57,176 nt of DNA from a virus. Its lineage: Duplodnaviria > Caudoviricetes. Made by a program: the position numbers and the translations under genes. Positions 1 through 57,176 of this stretch are shown here, piece by piece; the first letter of the stretch is position 1; every line of letters begins with the position of its first letter. The stretch is taken from positions 1 to 57,176 of IMG/VR virus record IMGVR_UViG_3300017963_000309; one strand, written 5' to 3'. A model generated the notes under the pieces. That model worked only from the letters and a program-made list of their open reading frames with translations, had not been told where the DNA came from and did no database searches.

Positions 1-11
1 GATATTTTATT

Positions 12-82
12 GCTCCGTTTGTCCATGGGTAAGATACTCGGCTGTCTACCGAGTGAACTGGGTTCAAGTCCCAGACGGAGCG
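12..82 (+). tRNA. tRNA-Asp(GTC)
   Basis: Acceptor GCTCCGT/ACGGAGC, anticodon arm CTCGG-CTGTCTA-CCGAG, T arm CTGGG-TTCAAGT-CCCAG, no encoded CCA. Confidence 0.92.
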
Positions 83-453
83 TAGTCTTGTCAGGCTAGG
101 TGATGTGCTGTCTTGTCCGGTAAAGTCTGGTAAGGTAAGGATTTCATATTTTATGATGTGTGGTTCGGTGCTGCGCGGTAAGGCGCTGTTAGGTTCTGTT
201 CTGTAGGGTAAGGTAAGGAAATTATATTCATGTGGTCGGGTCTTGTGCTGTGGGGCGTGGTAGAGCGCTGTCTGGTGATGAAAGGTCAGGTCAGGTTGCG
301 CGGGGTGGGGCAAGGTATGTTAAGGTAAGGTTATATTATATTCATGTGGTCAGGTGCAGTACAGTGCTGTGATGTGCGGTTCTGTTAACTAAGGTAAGGA
401 TTCATATTCACATGGTTATGTCTGGCGCTGTGTTGTTTTGTTGGGTGATGTAT

Positions 454-571
454 GGTAAGGTAAGGATTTCATATTCATAGGCTCGTAGCTCAGTCAGGTT
501 AGAGTACTGCTCTGATACGGCAGAAGTCACGGGTTCAAATCCCGTCGAGCCTATTAGTTGTTGTGTGGTAA
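454..571 (+). repeat. 118-bp exact copy of the contig end (57059-57176)
   Basis: Direct comparison: GGTAAGGTAAGGATTTC...TTGTGTGGTAA is identical at both places. Confidence 0.95.
479..553 (+). tRNA. tRNA-Ile(GAT)
   Basis: Acceptor AGGCTCG/CGAGCCT, anticodon arm CTGCT-CTGATAC-GGCAG, T arm ACGGG-TTCAAAT-CCCGT. Confidence 0.93.
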
Positions 572-776
572 CGTTCAGTTAGGTGCTGTGCGGTAAACTA
601 AGGTAAGGATTTATATTTTATTAGGTGATGTCCGGTGCAGTTGGGTGGTGTTCGGTGGTGTGGGGCTTGGCTTGGCGTTGTAAGGTAAGGAAGTAATCAC
701 TAAGGAGAAGTCACATAAGTATATAAAGAAAAACTTCTTCAAAAATTAAATTAAATAAAAAAAGAAAAAATTCAGC

Positions 777-6609: not shown

Positions 6610-6875
6610 TCTTTCTCATACTTTTTAATTGGAGAGAATTCTACCCACGCTGTAGGGTTAGAGAATAAGAATTTATAATATTCGCTTTTCAAGCCTTTTA
6701 ACTCTTTCACGTCCAAATCCATGACCACATCCTTCATCGTGAGACCGTCCGTGTGCGCTCTCTCGTGGCTTATGAGAGCACTTTTCAGCTTAGGATACCT
6801 ATTTAGACGTTTATTCAAATAAACAGTATTATCTACTCTACTTGCGATGCCCCAATTAATCAGTTTCGTTTCCAT
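6528..6875 (-). CDS. putative HExxH metallopeptidase with C-terminal TM
   Basis: LISHERAH zincin motif. Confidence 0.6.
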   Translation of the reverse strand: METKLINWGIASRVDNTVYLNKRLNRYPKLKSALISHERAHTDGLTMKDVVMDLDVKELKGLKSEYYKFLFSNPTAWVEFSPIKKYEKDWLFNLPVALVWAFFGIIIWFILTNLM

Positions 6876-9942: not shown

Positions 9943-10288
9943 GCACTGCTTCTTCTTTAGTTAAAATTTTGTAGTGACCTACCTCGTCAATACCGTCAAA
10001 ATAATTTTTAATCACTGCGTTCTCACTAACCCTTAACTTAATAGGGTGACCCTCAACCTTATCAATTAAAATATTAATATTGCCAATTTTAAAGTTCAGC
10101 ACATCATAAGTATATTGTTTACTATTAAATTCAATCAAGAAATCGTTCCACGTTTCACCAGCTTTACTCATAGTTTTTAATGGTGAGAATAAAATCTCGT
10201 CGCTAACTAAGTGATGTTTATGTTTACTTGACTTCTTATCTTTCTTTAGATTGCTTCTATTCAAGCCTTTTTTCTTAACTTTTACCAT
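9929..10288 (-). CDS. hypothetical protein
   Basis: 119-aa ORF coupled to the helicase. Confidence 0.6.
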   Translation of the reverse strand: MVKVKKKGLNRSNLKKDKKSSKHKHHLVSDEILFSPLKTMSKAGETWNDFLIEFNSKQYTYDVLNFKIGNINILIDKVEGHPIKLRVSENAVIKNYFDGIDEVGHYKILTKEEAVLDEL

Positions 10289-13223
10289 TTTTCTTCAATT
10301 TCGTCAATTTAAATCCTAAGTTATACATATTTTTCTTGTACTTATTAGTAATCTTCGGGATTAATCTTACGTCATACCTTTGATTATTCTTGTCTAAGAT
10401 GTAACTGATAACATTCGTGAAATAATAATTATCATCATCTTTTGCCATATCAAAAATGTTATATGTTGTGACTAAGTTCAATTTTGGATTATTTTGGTTC
10501 AGAACTAAATCCAAATCCTTTTGATAATATGAAAACGCCCCACAATAATCTAACCAAATGAAGTCAAACTTCTCACTAGGATTTTTCTTTAAATAAGTAT
10601 AAACTGAACAATTATGTAGTTCAATCTCTAAATCGCTGTCAAGTTTGATTAATGCTTCTTTCAACTTCTTGTACTCTTGATTGTTCGGGATTACTATTTT
10701 GTTTGGTCTAACTTTCCTTTTCTCTAATCGCTTAATACATTCAAGTGACGGACTTTCAAGGAGTAAAACGTTTTGATTATTCTTGATAAGGGATAAGATG
10801 TTATTTCTTATTTCGTTCTTATCTTCTTTAACTTTGAACCCTTTATCTTTTAATTTAAGTGTACCTTTATTTGTCCTTTTCTCTCCCCTTTTTACTGCGA
10901 CATCTTCGGACTTAACCTTATCATTGAATTTAAAATTACTCCTATAACCTTTAGGTCTAAATTTGACATTATTTCTAATTAAATATAATCTGATAGTATT
11001 AGGTGATACATTAAATTTATCAGCTATCTGCTTTTGTGTTGCCCCCATGTTGTACCACTTAATAACATCTTTATGTTTATCTCCGATTGTTGTTTCATTT
11101 CTATGTATAGCGTAACATTTAGTCGAACAAAAATCTTGAATACCATTTTCAGTACGAGATTTAAAATATTTCATCTTCTTTCCACAATTCTTACACTTAG
11201 ATTTTACTGTTCTTGAACCTTTAAACTCGTAATCACAATCTTCTCCGAAGATGTCTTTAATTGCATTTTTCCACTTATTATCATAATGTTTTATCAAAAC
11301 GGGATAACTATTACCAAACTCTGTCGTTTTCGGTATTCTGCCTAACTCTTTCGCTTTCGCTTTTAGTTCTTTTATGAGTTTCTCTTTTGGGATATTCAAT
11401 TCTCTTGCTTTTTCACCTAAACTTTTCAAGAACTTATTCCATGTTCCAAAATATGCTTCGTAAATACTCATACCATATTTAGAACCTTTCTTTAATTTCA
11501 TGTCAGAACTTAATGGCTTTCTTCCTAAAACCTTTTTCATTTGATAATAATTATCAATTAATTCTTGCTTACTTACTCGCTTCCTATTCATGTTATTGGC
11601 ACTAATCGGTTCTCCAATATGTTTTAAGAAGTCAGACCATTTCCCAAAATGTTTTTCATACTTCTTCAAATTGAACTTAGCCCCGTACTTTTTATTAGAA
11701 CTGAAATGTTTTTGTAATGGTCGTTTCCCGAGTTTCTTTTTCATCTTGTAATATTCGGTAATTAATTCCTCTTCCGTTACATCACGTCGTCTGCAATAAG
11801 GAGTTTCCCCCATACTTTCTAAGAATTGTTCCCATGAGTTCCAATATAATCGGTGAAAAAATGCACAATTATTACTTTCTCTTGCCTTTGGTACTCTACC
11901 CAACTTCTCTTTTAATTCTTTATACTCTTGGATTAATTGCTGTTTCGTTGGTCTTTTCTTCATTTGTTTAATGACGTCAAACTTGGTTCGTGTTAATCTA
12001 ATCTTGAAACGTGGGTTAAGTTCTATTAACTGATTTAGTTCTGATTGATTAAGATTACGGTATTTTATATCTGTTACTATATCATGTCCTATAACATCAC
12101 CTAATACTTCAAAATTGATATTACATCTTCTAGCGTTACCAGTGAAATCTAAGACTAATAAATCTTCTTTATTTTTTGACTTCCTTAACCCTCTACCAAC
12201 TTGTTGAGTGAAAATTATATGACTGCTTGTAGGTCTTAACATTATGATACTGTCACATGACGGAACATCAATCCCCTCATTAAACAAATCACGAACGAAG
12301 ATGATTTCGTATTCATTCTCTTTGAAGCCCTTAATGATTTTCTTTCTTTTCCCTCTTGAAATCTTATCAACGCTTAACAGATTTCTTCCAGTTAATGCGA
12401 CAGATTTAATGCCTTGACTATTGAAGTAATTAGCAAGTCTATGTGCGTGTTCAACCGTTGCGGAGAAACAAATAGTTTTTTTCTTCTTAAACTTCTTTTT
12501 GATTATATCCTCATACTCTTGTAGTATCGCTTCATCATACTTCTTGATACAAATCTTTTTATTCAAATCTTTCTCTGAATAACTTGAACCATTATATTTA
12601 ATCTTAGAAAAATCAATATCGTTATCGACACACCAGTAACTTAAATTTGTAAGTAAATTACTTTCTATCGCTTCATGCGTTTTCACTTCATACAACTTCT
12701 TACCAATAATTTTAAAGATACTTTTATTATCCATTCGGTAGGGAGTACCAGTCATTCCCAACATAAACTTTGGTTCAAAGTATTTTAATACTTCTCGGTA
12801 TGTACTAGCTTGGTAATGATGTGCTTCATCTACAATAATATAATCAAACTCTTTCTTGTCAAAATTTTCTAAACTCCTTGAAAGTGATTGAATAGTGCCA
12901 AAAGTACACTGTTCAATTTGTTTCTTATTTCCGTTATAATACCCGTAACAGATATTAAAATCTTTTAAACAACTTTGAAATTCTTTTTCATTCGCTTGTA
13001 AAAGGATATCATTATTGTGACAAATGTAGAGAAATGAAGCTTTAGGATTTCTTTTAAGTAAACTTTTAACCCATAACGCACTCATGAAAGTTTTCCCCGT
13101 ACCAGTAGGTAGAACTATAACGCCCCCCTTTTCTTTTGTCTTTGCTAAAATTTTCAAAGCTTCTTGTTGGTACTTGTTAGGTAAGAATACTTTCTGCGGT
13201 TCTTGTAGTATTTGTTTACTCAT
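10275..13223 (-). CDS. SF2 (Res/DEAH) helicase fused to homing-endonuclease-associated repeats, Zn finger, HTH and a methyltransferase-like C-terminus
   Basis: LPTGTGKT, IVDEAHH, GMTGTP, QQVGRGLR; four K.LGR.P...W repeats; FDFIWLDYCG. Confidence 0.85.
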   Translation of the reverse strand: MSKQILQEPQKVFLPNKYQQEALKILAKTKEKGGVIVLPTGTGKTFMSALWVKSLLKRNPKASFLYICHNNDILLQANEKEFQSCLKDFNICYGYYNGNKKQIEQCTFGTIQSLSRSLENFDKKEFDYIIVDEAHHYQASTYREVLKYFEPKFMLGMTGTPYRMDNKSIFKIIGKKLYEVKTHEAIESNLLTNLSYWCVDNDIDFSKIKYNGSSYSEKDLNKKICIKKYDEAILQEYEDIIKKKFKKKKTICFSATVEHAHRLANYFNSQGIKSVALTGRNLLSVDKISRGKRKKIIKGFKENEYEIIFVRDLFNEGIDVPSCDSIIMLRPTSSHIIFTQQVGRGLRKSKNKEDLLVLDFTGNARRCNINFEVLGDVIGHDIVTDIKYRNLNQSELNQLIELNPRFKIRLTRTKFDVIKQMKKRPTKQQLIQEYKELKEKLGRVPKARESNNCAFFHRLYWNSWEQFLESMGETPYCRRRDVTEEELITEYYKMKKKLGKRPLQKHFSSNKKYGAKFNLKKYEKHFGKWSDFLKHIGEPISANNMNRKRVSKQELIDNYYQMKKVLGRKPLSSDMKLKKGSKYGMSIYEAYFGTWNKFLKSLGEKARELNIPKEKLIKELKAKAKELGRIPKTTEFGNSYPVLIKHYDNKWKNAIKDIFGEDCDYEFKGSRTVKSKCKNCGKKMKYFKSRTENGIQDFCSTKCYAIHRNETTIGDKHKDVIKWYNMGATQKQIADKFNVSPNTIRLYLIRNNVKFRPKGYRSNFKFNDKVKSEDVAVKRGEKRTNKGTLKLKDKGFKVKEDKNEIRNNILSLIKNNQNVLLLESPSLECIKRLEKRKVRPNKIVIPNNQEYKKLKEALIKLDSDLEIELHNCSVYTYLKKNPSEKFDFIWLDYCGAFSYYQKDLDLVLNQNNPKLNLVTTYNIFDMAKDDDNYYFTNVISYILDKNNQRYDVRLIPKITNKYKKNMYNLGFKLTKLKKNGKS

Positions 13224-34045: not shown

Positions 34046-34870
34046 TCATTCTTCGCTATCTCCCTTGTCTTTCTTCACGACGTTATGAATAATCGGCGTA
34101 ATTACATCATTGAAATATTCAGGTGTGTGAAAATGTCTTTTGTTGGGTGCTTCATCTATCTTTAATTGCTTCTCTATGAAATCGTCTAATACTTGCAAGT
34201 TCTCAATAATGTGATTTTCGTTTTGATTTCTTTTATTTTGAATAATCTTAACTAGGATTTCCTTAATCTCTGATGAGACATTCTTATCATAGGAAAGTGC
34301 TGAAAGTGTTGTTTCAAAATCAATCATGGGTAAACTTCCCCTTTCTTTGACCCAAATAGAATTAATAATTCCCCTACAAGTGTAAAGATATTTCTTTGGA
34401 GTTGATGGATAATTCTGAGGCTTAATGTATTTTAGATAGTTCTGTTTTCCCATTGATTTATAATGATAGTATAAACTAATTGGATTAAATAAGTTGTTTG
34501 AAAATCTCACAAATTCTTTAGGTCTTTCACCAAAGTAAAGTATATTAGAATTAAGCCATTCAATTACTGTTGGATTTGAAGATGATAACATCTTACTAAA
34601 CTTTAGAATATCAAACCCTTGCATATCAATTAAACTACCCTCTGGACTTATCCTTTCAAATTTCTCATTAAAAGCAACAGTAATAACATCACTCTTTGGA
34701 TTGATTAAGGTATATTCTTGTGGTTTACGATAGAAAACAAATCTTACGTCATAATCAGAATCCTTACTCGCCATCCCCCATGCTCTTGAACCTGACTCTA
34801 CTGCAAATAATATTTGTACATCATACTCTTTTGCTACTTGCATTAATAATTCGTTTATCTTCTCTTTCAT
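34046..34870 (-). CDS. Pol-beta-type nucleotidyltransferase (Nuc-transf/YcgL-like family)
   Basis: AVESGSRAWGMASKDSDYDVRFVF, NPTVIEWL, KKYLY. Confidence 0.88.
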   Translation of the reverse strand: MKEKINELLMQVAKEYDVQILFAVESGSRAWGMASKDSDYDVRFVFYRKPQEYTLINPKSDVITVAFNEKFERISPEGSLIDMQGFDILKFSKMLSSSNPTVIEWLNSNILYFGERPKEFVRFSNNLFNPISLYYHYKSMGKQNYLKYIKPQNYPSTPKKYLYTCRGIINSIWVKERGSLPMIDFETTLSALSYDKNVSSEIKEILVKIIQNKRNQNENHIIENLQVLDDFIEKQLKIDEAPNKRHFHTPEYFNDVITPIIHNVVKKDKGDSEE

Positions 34871-34919
34871 TTGCTATCACCTTCTTCCTTTTCTATGTTT
34901 TGTTTTTCCATTTCGTATT

Positions 34920-35222
34920 TTAATCCGTTTCGGAATCCTCTGGCTCTGATTTAATTTTTGGCAAATCGCTATGGATATTTTCATTCATTTCACAAGCATA
35001 TTTATGACTTACATTTTTATAACTACTCTCTATATCTTCAAAATCATATTCATTCTCCATAGCAATTTTATCCCCTTTCCAATCATTACTCAATAACCAA
35101 AGGAGTAATCTACCTACATTGAGATTATAAATTGTTTCATAAAATTTGTAGCCACCGTCAAGTTGATGTCCAAATAAATATTCCTTCTTTGTATGGTTTA
35201 CTATTGAGTATGCGGTTCCCAT
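34920..35222 (-). CDS. hypothetical protein
   Basis: MG..Y.IVNHTKKEYL N-terminus common in viral accessory genes. Confidence 0.65.
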   Translation of the reverse strand: MGTAYSIVNHTKKEYLFGHQLDGGYKFYETIYNLNVGRLLLWLLSNDWKGDKIAMENEYDFEDIESSYKNVSHKYACEMNENIHSDLPKIKSEPEDSETD

Positions 35223-35228
35223 CGTGTA

Positions 35229-35390
35229 TTAATTGGACTCGGAGTCCTGTTTTAGTTCTTTAATAATATCTATTAAACTATCCCACTCAAAAAAAACATT
35301 GTTCTTTCGTCCATTCAAAATTAAGTTTTGAATATCTTCTAGGGCTTGGTTGTATCCTTCTTCAAAATTAAACTTTATCTTCTCTTTCAT
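35229..35390 (-). CDS. small hypothetical protein (53 aa)
   Basis: Manual translation MKEKIKFNFEEGYNQALEDI...QDSESN; GGTGA RBS. Confidence 0.5.
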   Translation of the reverse strand: MKEKIKFNFEEGYNQALEDIQNLILNGRKNNVFFEWDSLIDIIKELKQDSESN

Positions 35391-35416
35391 TTGCTATCAC
35401 CTTCTTCCTACTTGTC

Positions 35417-35758
35417 TCATTTATTTTCCTCCATTAGTTTCTCTAGTTCTGGCGAGATTTCAAGTTCAGTGCTATCTCTCCTTTCCACATCTAATTTACC
35501 CATAAACTTTTTAGCTTTTGTCTCCACTTCCTTGATAAATTTAAACATAGCTGTTTGATTTGTCGGGTTAATGTCATGGTGACATTCTTGACAAATAGGG
35601 ATTTTTATATTGAACCTTGGACTATACATTTGTGGAATTGAGTGATGATAAGTTTTCCTTTTCTTTATTTGGTCTTTATCAAAATTCCCTCCACATCTCC
35701 AACAAAAATCATATTTGTTTAGTGTAATAGTATTATTCTTTGCCTTTGCCATCGTCAT
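35417..35758 (-). CDS. HNH-like endonuclease
   Basis: CWRC...HHSIP...PICQECHHDIN. Confidence 0.7.
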   Translation of the reverse strand: MTMAKAKNNTITLNKYDFCWRCGGNFDKDQIKKRKTYHHSIPQMYSPRFNIKIPICQECHHDINPTNQTAMFKFIKEVETKAKKFMGKLDVERRDSTELEISPELEKLMEENK

Positions 35759-35765
35759 TTAATCC

Positions 35766-36377
35766 TTAACTGAAGTCTTTATGTTTTATTTTAGTTATTA
35801 TTCTTCTACCATTTCTTGCAGACATTTCTACCTTCGGTCTTAATACTATCCCCTCTGCAATAAAGTCTCCAAATTCAGAATTAAATCCATTACGTGTCAT
35901 TTCAATAGCATCGTTTAGTGTTCCCTCACCAATTATCTTCACAGTTTTTAATCCTAGTTTTTCGGCTATTTCTTCAACGGCTTCTCTTTTAAGCCACCAT
36001 TTTCCAACCTTGACATCAAAAAGTATAAAACTCACTCCATCAGAAATATAGTTTCCACCACTCTTTTGTATTCCTGCACCATAACCTTCGCCGTATAAGC
36101 AAACTTCATCATCAAAAATTTCCTCAAACTTTTCTTTATCAAACATTTCTTGTAATTTCTCCATTAAGAAAACTGGCATTTGTGCATTGTCTGTCTTTCC
36201 TCCGAATCTTAACTTTTCCCCATCCCACATTATTCTGATATTAGTTCCATCTATCTTTTCAGTAAACACCCAAGAGTTATCTTTTAGATATTCAAACTCT
36301 GGCAGAGAATACTCTTCTGTAAACTTCCCTTTATTATCTCTTTTGAAGATTGATTGTATTTTATGGTATTCTCTCAT
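35766..36377 (-). CDS. ATP-dependent RNA ligase (Rnl2-like adenylation domain)
   Basis: TEKIDGTN, LYGE, FDV, AEGIV, KIK. Confidence 0.88.
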   Translation of the reverse strand: MREYHKIQSIFKRDNKGKFTEEYSLPEFEYLKDNSWVFTEKIDGTNIRIMWDGEKLRFGGKTDNAQMPVFLMEKLQEMFDKEKFEEIFDDEVCLYGEGYGAGIQKSGGNYISDGVSFILFDVKVGKWWLKREAVEEIAEKLGLKTVKIIGEGTLNDAIEMTRNGFNSEFGDFIAEGIVLRPKVEMSARNGRRIITKIKHKDFS

Positions 36378-37012: not shown

Positions 37013-37672
37013 CGTATTTTAGCACTTCTGTGACTCCTTCCATTTATCTATAAAGAGTTTGAGTGTTTTCCCATTATCTTGAATTGATTCTTCAATCTTG
37101 GCATCCCACATCTCAATAATCTTCCTACCATCAACCATTACTACAATCCTATTTTCTTTTCTTAATTCCATTTTTAGCACTTAGGTGACTCCTTCAAATT
37201 TATCTTTTTGTTCCTTCAGTAAACCTTCCTCGATATCTTTCATTAGTTGGTACTTAATTAGGAAATCGTTTAGTGCCCCTTGCTTGATATCATTCTTCAA
37301 TCTTTCAAACTTTTCTTCATAACTTAACTTTCTTGGCATCTTTCTCCTCCTTCAACTCTTTATCTAAACATTTCTTATCATTGCAGATGAACTTGCCGCC
37401 ACTAATGGCGCCCCAGTTCTCGGTTAGGATAATTCTTTTCTCGCAGTGCTTGCACAGAACGTCACGGTATAATTCTCTTCGTATCATTTTAAGGAGGTCG
37501 TCACGGGGTAAGGTATGTTATGTATAAAAAAGAGGTGATATAGCTTAATCCCAAAAGAAAAAGGTTTTACCGCCAAGATGCTACTTTCAAAAGTTTTTAC
37601 CCCGTGACTGTCCATAGTTTTTGGACGCACCTTTTCTTTAAATATGTGAGCGAGCACTGGAGAGTGAGAACA

Positions 37673-37746
37673 TAGTCCCGCGAGGATTCGAACCCCGGTA
37701 TCTGATTCCAAAGACCAGCGCATTTGTCCAGCTATGCTACGGGACT
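37673..37746 (-). tRNA. tRNA-Gln(TTG)
   Basis: AGTCCCG/CGGGACT (archaeal-type A1:U72); CTGGT-CTTTGGA-ATCAG. Confidence 0.9.
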
Positions 37747-37749
37747 AAA

Positions 37750-37824
37750 TGGGGCTGCGCGGATTCGAACCACGATAACGTACTTCCAAAGCACGGATAC
37801 TAAACCAAATTATATTACAACCCC
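37750..37824 (-). tRNA. tRNA-Pro(TGG)
   Basis: GGGGTTG/CAGCCCC; CGTGC-TTTGGAA-GTACG. Confidence 0.82.
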
Positions 37825-37911
37825 AGTTAAGAAAAAATGTCTATTCACTGTTGGGGCTGCCAAATTGTCATAAGAAAAATAAAGAAAAAGGTTATTTAAA
37901 GTTTATCATGT

Positions 37912-38070
37912 TTACTTGATAATCTTTCTTTTTTGACATTGCATACACCATTCAACAGTTCGCTTGAGATACTTCTTTCCAGTCTTTCGGTCACCACGAC
38001 CGTACCTCTTGAAAACACGATGAACAGTTTCTTCTCCGCAATGTTTGCAAAGTTGTTCGTTGTACTTCAT
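37912..38070 (-). CDS. 52-aa basic Zn-ribbon protein
   Basis: Manual translation MKYNEQLCKHCGEETVH...WCMQCQKRKIIK; GGAGG RBS. Confidence 0.6.
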   Translation of the reverse strand: MKYNEQLCKHCGEETVHRVFKRYGRGDRKTGKKYLKRTVEWCMQCQKRKIIK

Positions 38071-38150
38071 TTAAGCCTCCACGTTTAAATCACGTGGAGC
38101 TTCTTTGCTTACTCATTATGAAATGAGAGTTTGATACTATTTAAATTTTA

Positions 38151-38221
38151 TGCGAGCAAAGGGAATTGAACCCCCGCTAAATGGTTGGAAACCACTTGTC
38201 ATACCACTAGACCATACTCGC
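38151..38221 (-). tRNA. tRNA-Gly(TCC)
   Basis: GCGAGTA/TGCTCGC; AGTGG-TTTCCAA-CCATT. Confidence 0.88.
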
Positions 38222-38223
38222 AA

Positions 38224-38310
38224 TCGAGGGAGTAGGATTTGAACCTACGAGGACATAAAAGCCCATGGAGCTTAAATCCATTCCGTTTGACCAGACTCCG
38301 GCATCCCCCG
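38224..38310 (-). tRNA. tRNA-Leu(TAA)
   Basis: ATGGA-TTTAAGC-TCCAT; long variable arm. Confidence 0.88.
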
Positions 38311-38313
38311 GAA

Positions 38314-38399
38314 TGAAGGGTACAGGATTCGAACCTGTGTAGGTCAAGAGACCACGAGTCCTAAGCCCGCCCCGTTTAACCTGACTCCGGCAACCCTTC
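38314..38399 (-). tRNA. tRNA-Leu(TAG)
   Basis: GAAGGGT/ACCCTTC; GCGGG-CTTAGGA-CTCGT; long variable arm. Confidence 0.88.
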
Positions 38400-38403
38400 A
38401 ATA

Positions 38404-38475
38404 TGGACTCTGAGGGTACTGACCCCCCTCCTCCTCGTTGCAAACGAGGTATGCTACCAGTAACACCAAGAGCCC
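38404..38475 (-). tRNA. tRNA-Ala(TGC)
   Basis: G3:U70 pair; CCTCG-TTTGCAA-CGAGG; atypical T loop. Confidence 0.82.
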
Positions 38476-38477
38476 AA

Positions 38478-38549
38478 TAGACCCGCAGGGATTCGCACCC
38501 CAGTCGCCGCCGTGTAAAGGCGGAGTGATAACTCCTACACTACAGGTCT
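38478..38549 (-). tRNA. tRNA-Val(TAC)
   Basis: AGACCTG/CGGGTCT; CCGCC-TTTACAC-GGCGG. Confidence 0.85.
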
Positions 38550-49965: not shown

Positions 49966-51024
49966 ATGAAAGTAATGATTGATGAGCCCATGTTTAAGAA
50001 GGGTTCTTATCCCGCACAACAAAGTGACGGTCTTTACATGGATGGTGCTTTAGTCGAATTAGTAGAAATTTACGCAAGAAATATTGTCAAGGATAATCAA
50101 TTTGCAATAAATATGGGTTCTTCAACTTTTGGTGTTCGGACGGGAAAATCTACATTAGCCCAACAAATTTGTTATTATTACACCTACCGGGTAAATAAGT
50201 TGCATGGGCTAGATATTATATTTGACCACCGAAATATTGTTTTTAATTCAGAAGATTTGATTAAAAGGGCAGCAGCAGTTCCACGTTATTCTGCATTAAT
50301 ATTAGATGAAGGTGATGATTTAACAGAACACGCTTTCTCAAAGACTATGAAAGACTTGCAGAAATTCTTTAGAAAATCGGGGCAGTTAAATTTGTTCATC
50401 ATACTAATACTTCCTTCATTTTTTGATTGTCCAAAGTTTTTGGCTATGAATAGGACAAACGCATTTATCGACGTAAAATTTGAAGGAGAGTTTGATAGGG
50501 GTTATTTTGAGTATTATAATTTCACTGATAAGAAAAAATTGTATGTAAAAGGTAAAAAATTTCATGATTACGATGTCCAAAGAGCAACAATCCCAAATGG
50601 TCGTTTTGTTAACAAATATTGTGTTGACGAGGAAATATATCGCAAAATGAAATTAGATGACTTTATTAAAAAAGATGACGAAATCGAGGAAAAAATACCT
50701 ATGAAAGTCTATCGTAAGATTGAGAGTGAGATATTCACAAAAGTTTTTAAAGCAATAAAGATGGATATGAGAGGTAAGATTTCAGTTAAGAAAATGGCAA
50801 AATATTTTGGACGTTCAGAGAGAACTTGTCATCGCTTCTTGACAGAGAATGAAGACGAGATTGTTAGGTTAATTAAGCGAGGAAATTTTGAGCGTGACGA
50901 CGGCATATTGGCAGAGTCTAATGATACTATTGACCTTACCAAGGAAGAGGGCGAGGTGCGGGACACCACGGAGGGAGAGGGATATATAGAAGACGGCGAT
51001 GAACAAATGAACGATGAAAAATAA
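49966..51024 (+). CDS. P-loop ATPase (Zot/FtsK-like morphogenesis or packaging) with C-terminal HTH
   Basis: GVRTGKSTLA, LILDEG, FFRK; KMAKYFGRSERT. Confidence 0.75.
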   Translation: MKVMIDEPMFKKGSYPAQQSDGLYMDGALVELVEIYARNIVKDNQFAINMGSSTFGVRTGKSTLAQQICYYYTYRVNKLHGLDIIFDHRNIVFNSEDLIKRAAAVPRYSALILDEGDDLTEHAFSKTMKDLQKFFRKSGQLNLFIILILPSFFDCPKFLAMNRTNAFIDVKFEGEFDRGYFEYYNFTDKKKLYVKGKKFHDYDVQRATIPNGRFVNKYCVDEEIYRKMKLDDFIKKDDEIEEKIPMKVYRKIESEIFTKVFKAIKMDMRGKISVKKMAKYFGRSERTCHRFLTENEDEIVRLIKRGNFERDDGILAESNDTIDLTKEEGEVRDTTEGEGYIEDGDEQMNDEK

Positions 51025-52246
51025 ACAAGTGTTTACAACCGAGGGAAAGATTAGCACAACCTTTAATGACTTCTTTAGGGCATTAAAAGAACAGTCAAAA
51101 CAAAAAAGGTTAATTAGTGGCACATTGGAAGAAGAAGTTTTATTTGATATTGATAAAAAAGATATAATCATCTTTGAAGTTGATGTTGATAAACTTGATT
51201 TTGAAGTCCCGAATGGGAAAAAAAGAAATCTAATAATCCCCTCAGAAAAAATCTTTGTTGAAATCCCTGAACTTTATTTTGATAATAAAAAGGAGAAAGT
51301 TCTTTTATTGGGTGGCTTTTTAATTTATCATTCAAAATTATTTAGTGAGAAGTTTAATGAAAAAATCGTCGTAATTCAAATGCAATTAGAATATACAAAT
51401 ACTGAAACTGGTGAATGTTATACAACTCCTTTGAGTTTACCTTACAAAAAAGGTATTCCCACAATAGAAGAAGAAATTACTGAAGAAATGAATTGGCACC
51501 ATGGTGATGAAAAAAAAGAAGGTTTCCAATTAAGTAATAACATCAAAACATCTATTGTAAAATATGTTCAAAAGGTTTGCATTACAACGCTTTACAAAAT
51601 AGAACGTAAAGAATATACCAAATATAAAAAATGGACGCCACGAGGTTTCATCGAGAAACCAATTATTTATGCTCATGATGTCTCACGTCATAAACGACAT
51701 TTCTGGGAGGACAGTGGACGGTTCAAAATTCCCGGGTTGACTTTAAAAGAACGGGAAGAAAAAGGTTACGGCACTGATGAAGTGGTTTTTCGTGACGGTG
51801 AATTAAGACGTGATGTCCCGTTTCGGATTATAGGTGAATACTTAGTTGGTAAGATTAAGAAGAAGCGTGAAGATAACCGTAGAATAAAAGTAGCTAAGGG
51901 TCGCGTATTAAGATGTGAACAGAAAGTCTATGAAATCCTTCGTGAAATATTTCCGCATAAAATTATCACGCGACATGACCGTAGAACTTTGAAAGGTTTG
52001 GAACTCGATTTTAACTTACCTGAACTTCGTCTTGGTGTGGAATATGATGGTGAACAACACTATGATAAGGAATTGTGTGAAGCAGTTTTCAAATCAAACT
52101 TTGACGAACTCGTTCGACGGGATAGGAAGAAGGATAAACTTTGCCAAAGGAAGAAGATAAAATTACTAAGGATAAAATATGACGAACCTCTTACGAAGAC
52201 CCACTTTAAGAAAAAATTAAATGCTATGGAAGTTGCTACTTCCTAG
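51014..52246 (+). CDS. protein with C-terminal DUF559/Vsr-like endonuclease domain
   Basis: LELDFNLPELRLGVEYDGEQHY...RDRKKD...LLRIKY. Confidence 0.75.
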   Translation: MKNKQVFTTEGKISTTFNDFFRALKEQSKQKRLISGTLEEEVLFDIDKKDIIIFEVDVDKLDFEVPNGKKRNLIIPSEKIFVEIPELYFDNKKEKVLLLGGFLIYHSKLFSEKFNEKIVVIQMQLEYTNTETGECYTTPLSLPYKKGIPTIEEEITEEMNWHHGDEKKEGFQLSNNIKTSIVKYVQKVCITTLYKIERKEYTKYKKWTPRGFIEKPIIYAHDVSRHKRHFWEDSGRFKIPGLTLKEREEKGYGTDEVVFRDGELRRDVPFRIIGEYLVGKIKKKREDNRRIKVAKGRVLRCEQKVYEILREIFPHKIITRHDRRTLKGLELDFNLPELRLGVEYDGEQHYDKELCEAVFKSNFDELVRRDRKKDKLCQRKKIKLLRIKYDEPLTKTHFKKKLNAMEVATS

Positions 52247-52539: not shown

Positions 52540-52689
52540 TCATACTCAAGTCTATCGCGGGAGACTGACGTAAAAAGACTTGAGGGGTCAGTTCAGGGTT
52601 CACCTGTTTTTTGTCCAAATTAACTGTGACCCATTTTTACTACGTAAAAACCGCTCACCCTCATCGTCAATCCCCGCGCTTGATATTTA

Positions 52690-52831
52690 AGTATGGTGAA
52701 GTAGGGTTCAGTCAGGTAATGTGGGGTTCGGTTCGGTAAGGAGAGGAAATCATATTCAAATCCGGTTCGGTAGGGTGTTGCGGTGTAAAGTGAGGTACTG
52801 TACTGTCTGGTGAGGTAATGTAAGGTAAGGA
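52690..52831 (+). repeat. orphan two-unit (DGY-NN)n array
   Basis: Same 5-nt register; units end TAAGGAGAGGAAATCATATTCA (52737) and TAAGGTAAGGA (52821). Confidence 0.88.
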
Positions 52832-52991
52832 ACAAAAAATAAAATGAAAATAAAAGAAAACGAAACACGGGGAACAATGTCAACTTTAGGCGTAAAAATG
52901 ACCAAGTATACCATGGACAAGAAGCGGTATACCAGTAAACTGATGGACGCAGAAAACCCTAACTGGAGAGAAGAAGGAGAATATTATTAAG

Positions 52992-53534: not shown

Positions 53535-53606
53535 AAGATGGTAGCTTAATGGTAAAGCACTCGACTTGTAATCGAGAGATTGCCGGCTCGAAACCGGCTC
53601 ACACTA
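53535..53606 (+). pseudogene. tRNA-Thr(TGT)-like gene with broken acceptor stem
   Basis: D arm GCTT-AATGGTA-AAGC, CTCGA-CTTGTAA-TCGAG and GCCGG-CTCGAAA-CCGGC are intact; AAGATGG/TCACACT pairs poorly. Confidence 0.7.
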
Positions 53607-54813: not shown

Positions 54814-55182
54814 ATGGTAACTAAAGAAGAACGTAAGCGAATGGTTTGGAGACAATTCGGGAAGCAGAAGTATGAAGAGATTAGTAAATTTCTTTTCTGG
54901 TTCATTGCTATTGGTTTATTTGTTTCTTTACTTTCAGGCGCATTATATTCTTGGAGCTCACTTGCTTGCGAGAATGGATGGCTAACAGCAACAGAGTTTA
55001 ATGGAACTTGCGATTATGAAGAAATAACGATGGTTGCAGTTGCTTCACTTTTCATATTAATAATGATTATTGCAGCAATGATTGGCTTAATTTTAACAGT
55101 TCGGAATTGGTTAAAAAAGAACTGGAAACAAGCAGAAGAAAAAGTTACCGCGGAATTAAAGAAGCAGAGGAATAAGAAATGA
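54814..55182 (+). CDS. 2-TM membrane protein
   Basis: Two TM helices around a Cys loop. Confidence 0.65.
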   Translation: MVTKEERKRMVWRQFGKQKYEEISKFLFWFIAIGLFVSLLSGALYSWSSLACENGWLTATEFNGTCDYEEITMVAVASLFILIMIIAAMIGLILTVRNWLKKNWKQAEEKVTAELKKQRNKK

Positions 55183-55379
55183 CTAGCTATATTTATTATG
55201 ATTGCGGTTGTGCATATTCTTTTTCCCTAGATGGATGGGGAAAGGGTCAAGAATTGGAATGTGAAAATCTTTGTGATGAACACGCAAAAGACATTGATGA
55301 TGAAGACAAGGAGCCAGAAGAAGGAAACTCACTAACAGTTGTAAGGAGGGCAAGAAAGAATGAAAAAGATAAAAGTTGA
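55179..55379 (+). CDS. small Cys/acidic protein
   Basis: DCGC...LCDEH; overlaps both neighbours. Confidence 0.5.
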   Translation: MTSYIYYDCGCAYSFSLDGWGKGQELECENLCDEHAKDIDDEDKEPEEGNSLTVVRRARKNEKDKS

Positions 55380-55905
55380 AATTAAAAGTATTTCGCCTTT
55401 ACTTATGAACTCGCCAAAAGCTATGATTGATGAGGCATTAGGTCAGGAGATGAAACTTAAGACCAAAAAATATGACCCAAAAGAAGAAGCTGAAAAAGTT
55501 GCATATAGGAACGAGAAGGGAAAACTCTTCGTACCGTCAACAGCCATCCGTGCTGCTATGATTAACGCATCCAGTTTCAAGAAGATTGGGAAGTATGCAG
55601 CCAAATCGATTGTTAGTGCATCCGTTTATATTCCTGAACCAGAAATTGTTTTGGATAAACAAGCTTATGAAGTCGACAGTAGAACCGTCGTAATTCAGAG
55701 GAACAGAGTTGTAAAGTTCCGACCTATTATTAAAGATTGGAAACTAAACTTTGAAATTGTTTATAATGAAAATTTGATTGATGAAAAATTCATCAGACAG
55801 ATTTTGACCGAAGCTGGGCAAAGGATTGGACTACTAGATTTCCGTCCACAAAAGACTGGAAGTTTTGGTATGTTTGAAGTAACTAAATGGACAGTTCAAA
55901 AATAA
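55360..55905 (+). CDS. stand-alone RAMP/Cas7-like RNA-binding protein
   Basis: IKSISPLLMN (first RRM strand), LFVPSTAIRAAM (PxSSxKG-like helix), Gly-rich C-terminal loop IGLLDFRPQKTGSFGMFEV; no other cas genes in the window. Confidence 0.8.
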   Translation: MKKIKVEIKSISPLLMNSPKAMIDEALGQEMKLKTKKYDPKEEAEKVAYRNEKGKLFVPSTAIRAAMINASSFKKIGKYAAKSIVSASVYIPEPEIVLDKQAYEVDSRTVVIQRNRVVKFRPIIKDWKLNFEIVYNENLIDEKFIRQILTEAGQRIGLLDFRPQKTGSFGMFEVTKWTVQK

Positions 55906-55913
55906 TTTGAAAA

Positions 55914-56648
55914 ATGGCAAGTAAAGTAAGGCAAATTCAGAAGAGAGTCGTAATCAAAGACATCTCTCTCGACAAAGAACTTTATCCTCGTGAAAACTAT
56001 TACTGGAAACAGGCTAAAGGTTACGCTACTGCAATGGAGCAAGGTGACCAGTTCCCTAAGATTATCTTAGGTTTGAACAACGGTACACTTTATCTTATTG
56101 ATGGTAGGCACAGGATTGAAGCTCATAAGATTTTGAAAATCAAAGAAATTGACGCTGTAGTATACCACGGGTTATCGAAAGCAGAAATCTTTAAGATGGC
56201 TGTTAAGACTAACACTACTCATGGTATGAGTTTATCTGCATACGACCGGAGACGGTGCGCTGTGAAGTTAATAGAACTTGGTGTCAAGAATGCTGAGGTT
56301 GCAAATCTTATCAATGTCGAAAGTGATGAACTTCAAGATTTCGTTGGACAAAGGATGGTTAACACTATCACCGGCGAAGCGGTTGAAGCTGAAGAAGATG
56401 AAGGTTTCTTCAAGAGTATGGGTAACCGTATTTTGAAGAACACTTTGAAACATTACGCTGGAACTTCCGGCGCTGAAGCTCAACGAGTTATTGATTTACA
56501 AAAGAAACTTCCAACTTCAATGAACCAAGATAAGGTATGGGCTACGGCTGTTTACCTCTTGGAGAATGATTTGGCAGATTTGGATAGTAAAGAAAATCTT
56601 GAAAAGATTGGACGATTGAAGACTCTTTTACGAAAAGTAAAACTTTAA
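55914..56648 (+). CDS. ParB/Srx-domain protein with HTH
   Basis: FPKIIL...YLIDGRHRIEA, NTTHG, GVKNAEVANLINV. Confidence 0.82.
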   Translation: MASKVRQIQKRVVIKDISLDKELYPRENYYWKQAKGYATAMEQGDQFPKIILGLNNGTLYLIDGRHRIEAHKILKIKEIDAVVYHGLSKAEIFKMAVKTNTTHGMSLSAYDRRRCAVKLIELGVKNAEVANLINVESDELQDFVGQRMVNTITGEAVEAEEDEGFFKSMGNRILKNTLKHYAGTSGAEAQRVIDLQKKLPTSMNQDKVWATAVYLLENDLADLDSKENLEKIGRLKTLLRKVKL

Positions 56649-56842
56649 AACCAAAAGATTGTTTATTTTTATTATTAAATTTCAGGCGGGTGACCAACCC
56701 TTATCCGTCTTTATTATTTTCACATTTACGGGACGTAACCTAGGTAATTTAAACTTATACAACCTTACCTTGTCCCGTTGATTACGGGGACGACCTTTTC
56801 TTGAAACCTCCTTGCATAGTTTTCTTTGAGGTTGTTCCTGTA

Positions 56843-57176
56843 TCATATTCAATAAAGTATTGCGCGGCAATGTACTGTGATGTTTGGTTGGGTACTGTTT
56901 TCTAAGGTAAGGAATTATATTCATTGGGTGCTGTGTGGTTTTGTCAAGTGATGTATTGTTTGTCGCGGTTCTGTAGAGTAAGGTAAGGAAATTATATTCA
57001 TACGGTTCGGTTAGTTCCGGCTTGGCAAAGTCCTGTGGGCTGTTGCGGGGTGGGGTTCGGTAAGGTAAGGATTTCATATTCATAGGCTCGTAGCTCAGTC
57101 AGGTTAGAGTACTGCTCTGATACGGCAGAAGTCACGGGTTCAAATCCCGTCGAGCCTATTAGTTGTTGTGTGGTAA
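56843..57176 (+). repeat. (DGY-NN)n array, right arm: 3 full units, tRNA-Ile and the start of the next unit
   Basis: Opens with TCATATTCA; TAAGGTAAGG at 56903, 56979 and 57061. Confidence 0.92.
57084..57158 (+). tRNA. tRNA-Ile(GAT), identical to 479-553
   Basis: Exact sequence copy. Confidence 0.9.

Follow-up and report, generated by a model that had tools for sequence, protein, structure and literature searches.

A VIPR locus of an uncultured virus with a ParB-like partner gene, tRNA genes within its guide arrays and a guide complementary to a methylase motif

Introduction

Do a solitary RAMP-type gene, a ParB-like gene and a field of G/T-rich repeats in a viral genome make up an RNA-guided system, and if so, is this system of a new kind? 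The question is raised by the virus record IMGVR_UViG_3300017963_000309 (Duplodnaviria; Caudoviricetes), which was analysed over its whole length of 57,176 nucleotides (in the following, the window). The list of open reading frames (ORFs) gives two neighbouring ORFs on the + strand, at 55360-55905 (181 aa) and 55914-56648 (244 aa), just as an initial annotation, made from the letters alone, had reported. 3' of the two genes lies a G/T-rich stretch without genes, which continues up to the window end. Stretches of this kind also occupy 84-695, where the window begins, and, on a smaller scale, 52690-52835. The initial annotation read the locus as a candidate new, unnamed RNA-guided system with a resemblance to VIPR (Viral Interference Programmable Repeat). 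The resemblance is real and the novelty is not: the locus is a genuine VIPR system, a kind already named and described in preprints of 2026 (10.64898/2026.04.26.720920, main text). For the complete reading as a VIPR system of an uncultured virus, mechanism included, we estimate a probability of about 0.85. A clade with a ParB-like partner and tRNA-punctuated arrays, together with a guide fitting a methylase motif, would be additions worth testing.

According to the main text of the preprint that describes it (10.64898/2026.04.26.720920), VIPR consists of the RAMP protein Vipr, guides in which 9-16 YNNGG repeats are followed by a tail, and one accessory gene, vap; seven types are defined. Double-stranded DNA is recognised as NN-x-NN, the '1-nt skip', and the natural targets given there are satellites, prophages and other VIPR loci. 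The same text describes the alternative repeats NNNGG, YNNNG and NNNNG as well as vrRNA arrays interspersed with hammerheads, and WGT/NN and TGH/NN variants are described in the main text of 10.64898/2026.10.21.760802. The tested example in these main texts is the type II system of Escherichia phage SUSP1 (10.64898/2026.04.26.720920, 10.64898/2026.04.26.720927, 10.64898/2026.10.15.759431), in which Vipr forms a filament along the guide with a base-flipping thumb (10.64898/2026.04.26.720927).

Results and discussion

A Vipr homologue with a predicted Cas7-type fold

The 181-aa protein (vipr, 55360..55905, + strand) matched the PDB entry 36pp_D, 'SUSP1 Vipr protein', with an E-value of 1.4e-8 over residues 48-170, and phrog_4652 with an E-value of 9.3e-25; no family was found for it in Pfam or NCBIfam. 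Homologues occur in 158 phage records, phiSUSP1 included (E 4e-9). Identity to SUSP1 Vipr is only 24 %. The protein is by its sequence a homologue of the solved SUSP1 Vipr, and guide binding is predicted for it. An AlphaFold2 model based on a 33-sequence alignment reached a mean predicted local distance difference test (pLDDT) value of 86.9. With this model Foldseek returned 133 matches at E <= 0.001; the best ones, with E-values of 9e-7 and up and template modelling scores of 0.47-0.61, are to chains from Csm complexes of type III-A. The model is consistent with a Csm3/Cas7-family subunit, as the initial label of a RAMP/Cas7-like protein had implied.

This predicted fold would be common to Vipr and to the Cas7/Csm3 backbone of type III CRISPR. 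In contrast to the latter, the locus has no further cas gene and no CRISPR array: no Cas family was detected among the 80 window ORFs scanned against Pfam, in agreement with the initial annotation, and the tandem-repeat table of the window holds no CRISPR-like array. Furthermore, the main texts of the VIPR preprints give Vipr a footprint of 5 nt with 3 bases flipped and DNA as target, whereas Class 1 CRISPR has a 6-nt period with one displaced position.

For alignment at the residue level, the SUSP1 Vipr sequence was taken from phage record KT454805.2, and residue roles from the main text of 10.64898/2026.04.26.720927. The thumb residue R138, which holds G2 in SUSP1, corresponds to R121 here, and the G-loop residues D177, W178 and R179, which hold the triplet, correspond to D160, F161 and R162. 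These four residues (R121, D160, F161 and R162) are invariant or nearly so among 33 homologues. The third element, H17, reads G1 in SUSP1 and is aligned with N17; one homologue has His at this position. Since the residue reading G1 is Asn here, N17 may be the reason why triplet position 1 is free, as judged from an alignment that is weak in this place.

Guide arrays in a five-nucleotide register

On the strand of vipr and of the accessory gene, 12 guide units were recognised by register and composition. Three of them are E1 (56856-56924), E2 (56925-57001) and E3 (57002-57083), with borders precise to about +/-2 nt, and they lie where the initial annotation had placed the array. The array is, however, not confined to this place. 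Units were also found at the window start (S1a, 84-154; S1b, 155-232; S1c, 233-346; S1d, 347-412; S2a, 555..621; S2b, 622..695, the last unit) and upstream of the genes (U1, 52690-52762; U2, 52763-52835), again all on the + strand. A lone linker-like box (56843-56855, +) stands just 5' of E1.

The fixed register claimed initially is strongly supported by autocorrelation. Identity at a lag of 5 nt was 0.48-0.53 in four array segments and 0.28-0.29 in shuffled sequence (z 5.7-10.6), and none of 2000 shuffles per segment reached the observed value; the weakest of the four, with 0.48, was segment 56860-57082, the one to which the initial annotation had pointed. Genome-wide, the 40 best 100-nt stretches by this measure all fall inside 41-591 or 52681-52781. 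Stepping back by 5 from the constant end, the register is unbroken in 12/12 units. Over 118 pentamers, position 1 is G in 52, T in 36, A in 10 and C in 2 %, position 2 is G in 97 %, position 3 is T in 84 and C in 15 % (Y in 99 %), and positions 4-5 are variable, which is the proposed DGY/NN pattern.

Each unit is built in the order AT-rich box, NN, 8-17 variable DGY/NN pentamers and a constant end of 13 nt, GGTAAGGTAAGGA, the latter present in all 12 units. The AT-rich box, or linker, has a consensus close to TCATATTCAT. Whole-unit lengths range over 66-114 nt and leave residues of 1, 2, 3 and 4 modulo 5. They do not differ in steps of 5 nt, as had been stated, because the linker varies and only the repeat tract keeps the register. 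The box precedes the first unit and is absent after the last one in 5/5 arrays (two in the window, one in the related locus L027 and two in the related locus L003); in this it behaves like a 5' or inter-unit element rather than like part of a 3' tail.

Several other elements were looked for. No fold was predicted for the 12 units (z -1.8 to +1.5), and tRNA aside, neither a hammerhead nor any other Rfam family was found in the arrays of the window and of 20 related loci. Sigma-70-like sites were not enriched (14 found, 12.1 +/- 3.3 expected). An archaeal TATA element in the linker was considered and not adopted, as transcripts would begin 3-4 pentamers inside a unit. A hairpin at 56720-56780, in which the 9-nt core of the tail recurs inverted at 56763-56771, was rejected as an anti-repeat: it was not seen in those parts of the array leaders of L027 and L003 that were read, and the inverted core is compatible with chance, the expectation for a 9-mer being ~0.4 in this genome. 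Between vap and the array, a consensus scan gave a terminator-like hairpin followed by a T run (56684..56710, +).

Compared with SUSP1 VIPR, the likeness extends to a homologous Vipr, one adjacent accessory gene, guides in which about 9-16 pentamers each combine a fixed triplet with a variable NN, placed on the vipr strand and on both sides of the genes, and a viral genome without cas genes or CRISPR array. The locus differs by the low Vipr identity given above, by the free triplet position 1 (DGY), and by the 13-nt constant end and AT-rich linker, for which no structured or pseudoknot tail is predicted. The relaxed triplet, which had been regarded as a novelty, is covered by the published YNNNG and WGT/NN variants. 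Like the arrays here, these non-canonical repeats have one degenerate triplet position and Vipr-like genes alongside; in the main texts they are motif classes only, and no statement on tRNA, ParB or target was found there.

Conservation in related loci and host

At E <= 0.001, 203 Vipr homologues were collected. Two sets were compared. The first consists of 79 loci from viruses or genomes that contain a vipr homologue, the second of those 80 metagenome loci that are closest (39-87 % identity). In 41/79 of the first set, a strict xGYnn array lies at most 1.5 kb from vipr and on its strand; shuffled copies of these loci (793 kb) contained 0 arrays. In the second set, arrays were present in 64/80, many of the remainder being contigs of 1-2 kb. 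Thus, RAMP homologues with adjacent period-5 arrays, which the initial annotation had anticipated, are found in both sets. In the case of L027 (56 %), the order is, as in the window, a small Cys-rich ORF, vipr, the ParB-like gene and a 12-unit array with the same constant end. In L003, which is the same contig as L140 (LAZR01000515.1, 30 kb), the ParB-like gene comes first. As the published survey could probably have covered an NCBI contig of 30 kb, the clade probably belongs to one of the seven published VIPR types.

The host was initially proposed to be archaeal. This is plausible: relatives were found in 7 named genome contigs, of which 4 are archaeal metagenome-assembled genomes (MAGs), and the best one (60 %) is a Woesearchaeota MAG. 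A 1.5-kb contig binned as Saccharibacteria also reaches 60 %. From sequence alone, the locus lends support to the published VIPR code, independently of the Escherichia and Pseudomonas systems in print.

tRNA genes within the arrays

The embedded tRNAs of the initial annotation are genuine according to two programs (ARAGORN and Rfam). They comprise tRNA-Ile (GAT) at 57084..57158 (+, Rfam 69.3 bits), a copy of the same sequence at 479..553 (+, 69.3 bits) and tRNA-Asp at 12-82 (+, 47.6 bits). A possible explanation for their presence is that they are ordinary viral cargo recombined into a repeat-rich array, with the guides freed in another way, either through cleavage of the AT-rich linker by host RNases or through promoters of their own. 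We hold this explanation to be quite possible, at somewhat under even odds. Most unit borders have no tRNA (9/12 in the window and all in L027 and L003), the virus has another cluster of 7-8 tRNAs at 37672-38549, and the linker is placed as expected for a 5' signal, before the first unit and not after the last in 5/5 arrays.

The positions of the tRNA genes argue against mere cargo. Firstly, 3/3 window tRNAs have the orientation of the array and fill precisely the gap that separates the AT-rich box of one unit from the opening pentamers of the following one. Secondly, an array-strand tRNA lies inside the array in five related loci (ARAGORN; Rfam 58.8-65.5 bits), namely Asp in L122/L124 (identical in sequence), L141 and L153, and Val in L155. 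tRNA-Asp hence recurs in three distinct related loci (four with the duplicate) plus the window, in divergent copies. Thirdly, in the four Asp-bearing loci (4/5 of the related ones) the distal part of the AT-rich box is replaced by the tRNA. Finally, in a distant Vipr clade (28 % identity) a period-5 region begins at the 3' end of a tRNA-Cys, directly 5' of the array, in 3/5 tRNA-bearing loci.

In this distant clade, the tRNA-Cys loci are L052, L057 and L058 (also L056 and L062), with the tRNA gene ~0.9-1.5 kb 3' of vipr, and the period-5 array after it has another constant motif and a looser repeat. Two further tRNA-like stretches of the window were reported by Rfam and not listed by ARAGORN. 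One is found at 53539-53601 (+, 50.1 bits, model positions 5-66), between the upstream guide pair and vipr, the other at 38404-38475 (-, 44.6 bits).

tRNA genes inside the array set the locus apart from SUSP1 VIPR. The closest published parallel is the hammerhead-interspersed vrRNA array, in which, as here, a self-contained RNA element lies between guides and could set their ends; the element here is instead a genuine tRNA gene that would need host RNase P and RNase Z and is present at some borders only. tRNA genes in arrays are not mentioned in the main texts of the VIPR preprints, one of which speaks of tRNA in other contexts only, their supplementary type tables lying outside that scope, and tRNA genes at unit boundaries are an addition to these main texts that is worth testing.

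In genome editing, engineered arrays of alternating tRNAs and guide RNAs are in use, which likewise have such an element between guides. tRNA-punctuated arrays suggest a simple, host-supplied guide maturation that would be useful for engineering multi-guide VIPR arrays.

A guide complementary to methylase motif I

One guide gives insight into possible targets. The 11 NN pairs of S2b spell, by the rule of skipping 1 nt, the S-adenosylmethionine (SAM)-binding motif I of methylases. When read as codons with the third base free, S2b gives [D/E]-P-A-[C/W]-G-S-G-G-[F/L]-[F/L]-V, which we took to be motif I of N6-adenine methylases before testing it on genes. A unit of the related locus L133, whose Vipr is 54 % identical, agrees with S2b in 22/24 NN letters and in only 6/12 of triplet position 1; the NN letters are therefore conserved while triplet position 1 drifts. 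The two differences would change Ser to Thr and Gly to Ala.

Loci with N6_Mtase genes were fetched by Pfam PF02384 (33 + 20 = 53 loci). In 53/53 of them, the best skip-1 site of S2b was motif I, in frame, with scores of 15-20 of 22 in the 33 loci and 14-21 of 22 in the 20 loci. Under skips of 0, 2 and 3, S2b never scored above 15 in these loci. The remaining 11 guides matched there over 0.53-0.71 of their length, which is chance level. The L133 counterpart guide matched 22/22 in L185, L188 and L189 (3/33 loci) and 21/22 in L190 and L191, and at most 15 under other skip rules. The three perfect targets lie in genomes binned as cellular archaea, and the one in L188 is an hsdM gene (HsdM_N + N6_Mtase) directly after hsdS. 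In the case of a 736-kb archaeal contig, only S2b at skip 1 stood out, with 21/22 at one site and <= 17/22 elsewhere. An exact look-up of NN series of 18-20 letters from all arrays returned only S2b and the L133 guide, and 20 letters only with skip 1. L159 is a weaker third case with 18/22. The window itself has no methylase-motif site (best S2b score 15/22).

Thus, S2b is complementary to methylase motif I. The same NN series occurs in two viruses with only 54 % identical Vipr proteins and fits natural genes only with a skip of one base, as in SUSP1 VIPR, the skipped base being the wobble position; here this holds for one guide of 12. Together with the Vipr homology and the adjacent arrays of relatives, this supports the initial proposal of one triplet per subunit with the NN displayed for gapped pairing, which is also the mechanism in the published main texts.

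The guide could also be aimed at restriction-modification or methylase genes of rival viruses or plasmids and not serve counter-defence against the host. For this speak the published natural targets, which are satellites, prophages and other VIPR loci. Methylase genes of the restriction-modification type are, in addition, often mobile. On the other hand, the perfect matches lie in archaea-binned genomes, and one of them is part of an hsdS-hsdM pair that has NUDIX and Fic genes as neighbours, the 4 kb read containing no viral gene. We consider an aim at rival elements possible and rather unlikely, and infer that the virus would silence a restriction-modification operon of its host by S2b.

By this fit to a methylase gene, and not to a satellite or a prophage regulator, the locus differs from published VIPR. 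The main texts of the biological VIPR preprints, with the target tables outside that scope, mention neither methylase or restriction-modification targets nor counter-defence. A methylase gene hit via a conserved protein motif would be a use of VIPR absent from these main texts; if true, VIPR would serve counter-defence in addition to combat among mobile elements.

The ParB-like accessory protein

The second gene (vap, 55914..56648, +) had been called ParB-like, which is borne out by profile and fold. The 244-aa protein matched phrog_1033 (ParB-like) with an E-value of 4e-13. Its AlphaFold2 model has pLDDT values of 81-96 over blocks 11-140 and low values beyond, and its Foldseek matches are Noc, ParB and KorB (E 8e-9 to 1e-6), so that the fold is common to these proteins as known from the predicted structure. 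The protein comprises a ParB/Srx N-domain and a helical/helix-turn-helix part, and the motifs DGxHR, which lies in the N-domain, YPR and HG are invariant across 11 homologues. Unlike in SUSP1, where the gene 3' of vipr is unrelated (E 6.2), a ParB-like accessory protein is thus encoded here. A vap homologue adjoins vipr in 18/79 viral or genome loci, all 18 with a Vipr identity of at least 32 %, and a ParB-like gene lies beside vipr in 68/80 of the closest metagenome loci.

Given this partner, the repeats might be a DNA centromere or iteron field, i.e. a partition site for the ParB-like protein, and not guide-RNA genes. It is true that the ParB-like gene adjoins 12 copies of the constant motif. 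The repeats, however, are direct and not palindromic, and no ParA family was found among the 80 window ORFs scanned, both in contrast to a ParABS partition system. A Vipr homologue with conserved RNA-contact residues stands beside the repeats, a 5-nt code with variable NN is unexpected in a field of binding sites, and one unit (S2b) spells a protein motif codon by codon. Moreover, arrays of this kind also occur in VIPR clades devoid of the ParB gene: among the loci below 32 % Vipr identity, 0/29 have the ParB-like gene and 12/29 have arrays. A partition site is accordingly very improbable. That the arrays are coding sequence can be practically dismissed: minus-strand ORFs of 133 and 87 aa do span them (56682-57083 and 52620-52883), but the complement of a G/T-rich repeat is free of stop codons by its composition, unit lengths differ by non-multiples of 3, and the counterpart frames of L027 are broken into pieces.

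A comparable partnership is found in TIGR-TasA, where tasParB lies beside the system (Science 2025, PMC12045711). There, too, a ParB-like gene shares an operon with an RNA-guided DNA binder; the guide system differs from VIPR. Since VIPR and TIGR-TasA are unrelated as RNA-guided DNA binders and yet both have a ParB-like partner, the role of this partner is a well-posed question.

Proposed mechanism

Following the published SUSP1 work, Vipr subunits would polymerise along each transcript, with the thumb arginine and the G-loop residues D-F-R holding G2 and Y3 of every triplet. Triplet position 1 would be free, the SUSP1 His that reads G1 being Asn in this clade. The NN pairs would be presented and would pair with DNA reading NN-x-NN-x, which would block transcription. 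Cleavage of the precursor may occur in the naked AT-rich linkers, which, having no triplet, would alone be left bare by Vipr; where a tRNA is embedded, RNase P and RNase Z may do the cutting. The S2b guide would target the motif-I coding DNA in an N6-adenine methylase gene (type I hsdM-like), owned by the host or by a rival element, and would thereby switch off a restriction-modification operon. The ParB-like protein might help to hold or to spread the silencing.

A number of points weigh against this interpretation. Expression and processing of the array, its binding by Vipr and silencing are steps that we infer. The alignment of H17 with N17 falls in a poorly conserved stretch, and no counterpart to the structured tail of SUSP1 vrRNAs is predicted for the units. 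The tRNAs could be plain cargo, as outlined above. When the 12 guides were scanned under skips of 0-3, 11/12 had no target in the masked window, the 159 related loci (79 viral or genome and 80 metagenome loci), the 53 methylase loci and the 736-kb archaeal contig. The window's own S2b reaches only 21/22, the 22/22 matches belonging to the guide of a related virus, and because motif I is near-universal, a match to it does not identify the host, nor does it tell whether the gene is owned by the host or by a rival element. Finally, silencing a methylase gene leaves the enzyme already made in place.

A wider scenario can be drawn, which we regard as speculative and on the unlikely side. Viruses of small archaea would use VIPR for counter-defence, combining a codon-register guide, the release of guides from tRNA-punctuated precursors by tRNA-processing enzymes of the host, and a spreading of the silencing over neighbouring defence genes by the ParB-like partner. 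A codon-register guide, in which two bases are read and the wobble base is skipped, would recognise the near-universal SAM-binding motif in type I restriction-modification methylase genes despite synonymous codons, and one guide could therefore disarm many hosts.

Genome topology and probable array variants

The last 119 bases of the window (57058..57176, +) are an exact copy of 453-571 and form the joint at which the main genome would become circular. In both runs, the end of E3 is linked through tRNA-Ile to 628 by a read-contig of 189 nt with a depth of ~14. Word depth over 1-363 is 4.9 and 5.7 in the two runs and 12-14 from 454 on, and 1-363 lies on a contig of depth ~5 that reaches 196 bases past position 1. 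Another contig, of 46 nt and depth 4, leads straight from the end of E3 into the linker that precedes S2b (599-628), thereby bypassing tRNA-Ile and S2a. These coarse contig depths hint at a main genome that is a circle of 56,605 bases (453-57057), with the main array in the order E1-E2-E3-tRNA-Ile-S2a-S2b and minor array variants alongside. The lower-depth branch 1..452 (+), which contains a linker end, tRNA-Asp, S1a-S1d and the start of S1e, is probably such a minor variant, and the make-up of the array seems to be variable in the population. Neither the circle nor a minor array variant appears in the main texts of the VIPR preprints.

Genome context and neighbouring genes

A small Cys-rich ORF of 66 aa (55179..55379, +) overlaps the start of vipr and may be an accessory gene; no family was found for it in Pfam, PHROG or NCBIfam. 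Small Cys-rich ORFs resembling zinc ribbons adjoin vipr or the array also in L027 (5817-6020), in the same place and of similar size, and in L003 (~6760-6860), where an ORF with CxxC...CxxC lies 3' of the array. The ORFs of the window, L027 and L003 gave 0 tblastn matches and are without detectable sequence homology.

The window is a virus record with a CheckV completeness of 100 and encodes a helicase, a primase and an integrase, a setting in keeping with the mostly viral or proviral occurrence of VIPR. With its primase or its 352-aa ATPase as query, no close relatives of the virus were found, and PADLOC gave chance-level matches only. At 34046-36374 (-), the cluster of 7-8 tRNAs (-) has two neighbours, one encoding a nucleotidyltransferase of the RlaP type (Pfam E 9e-52), the other an RNA ligase (E 7e-20). 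Together these look like a tRNA repair set, perhaps directed against anticodon nucleases of the host. A SNF2/ResIII helicase at 10275-13220 (-) contains four homing-endonuclease-associated repeats, and a 410-aa protein with an HNH-type C-terminus (51014-52243, +) comes after the 352-aa ATPase, which has no family. An SPFH/Band 7 membrane protein (1075-2403, +; Pfam E 2e-17) is encoded a short way 3' of the last guide, with an 88-aa ORF (777-1043) lying between the two.

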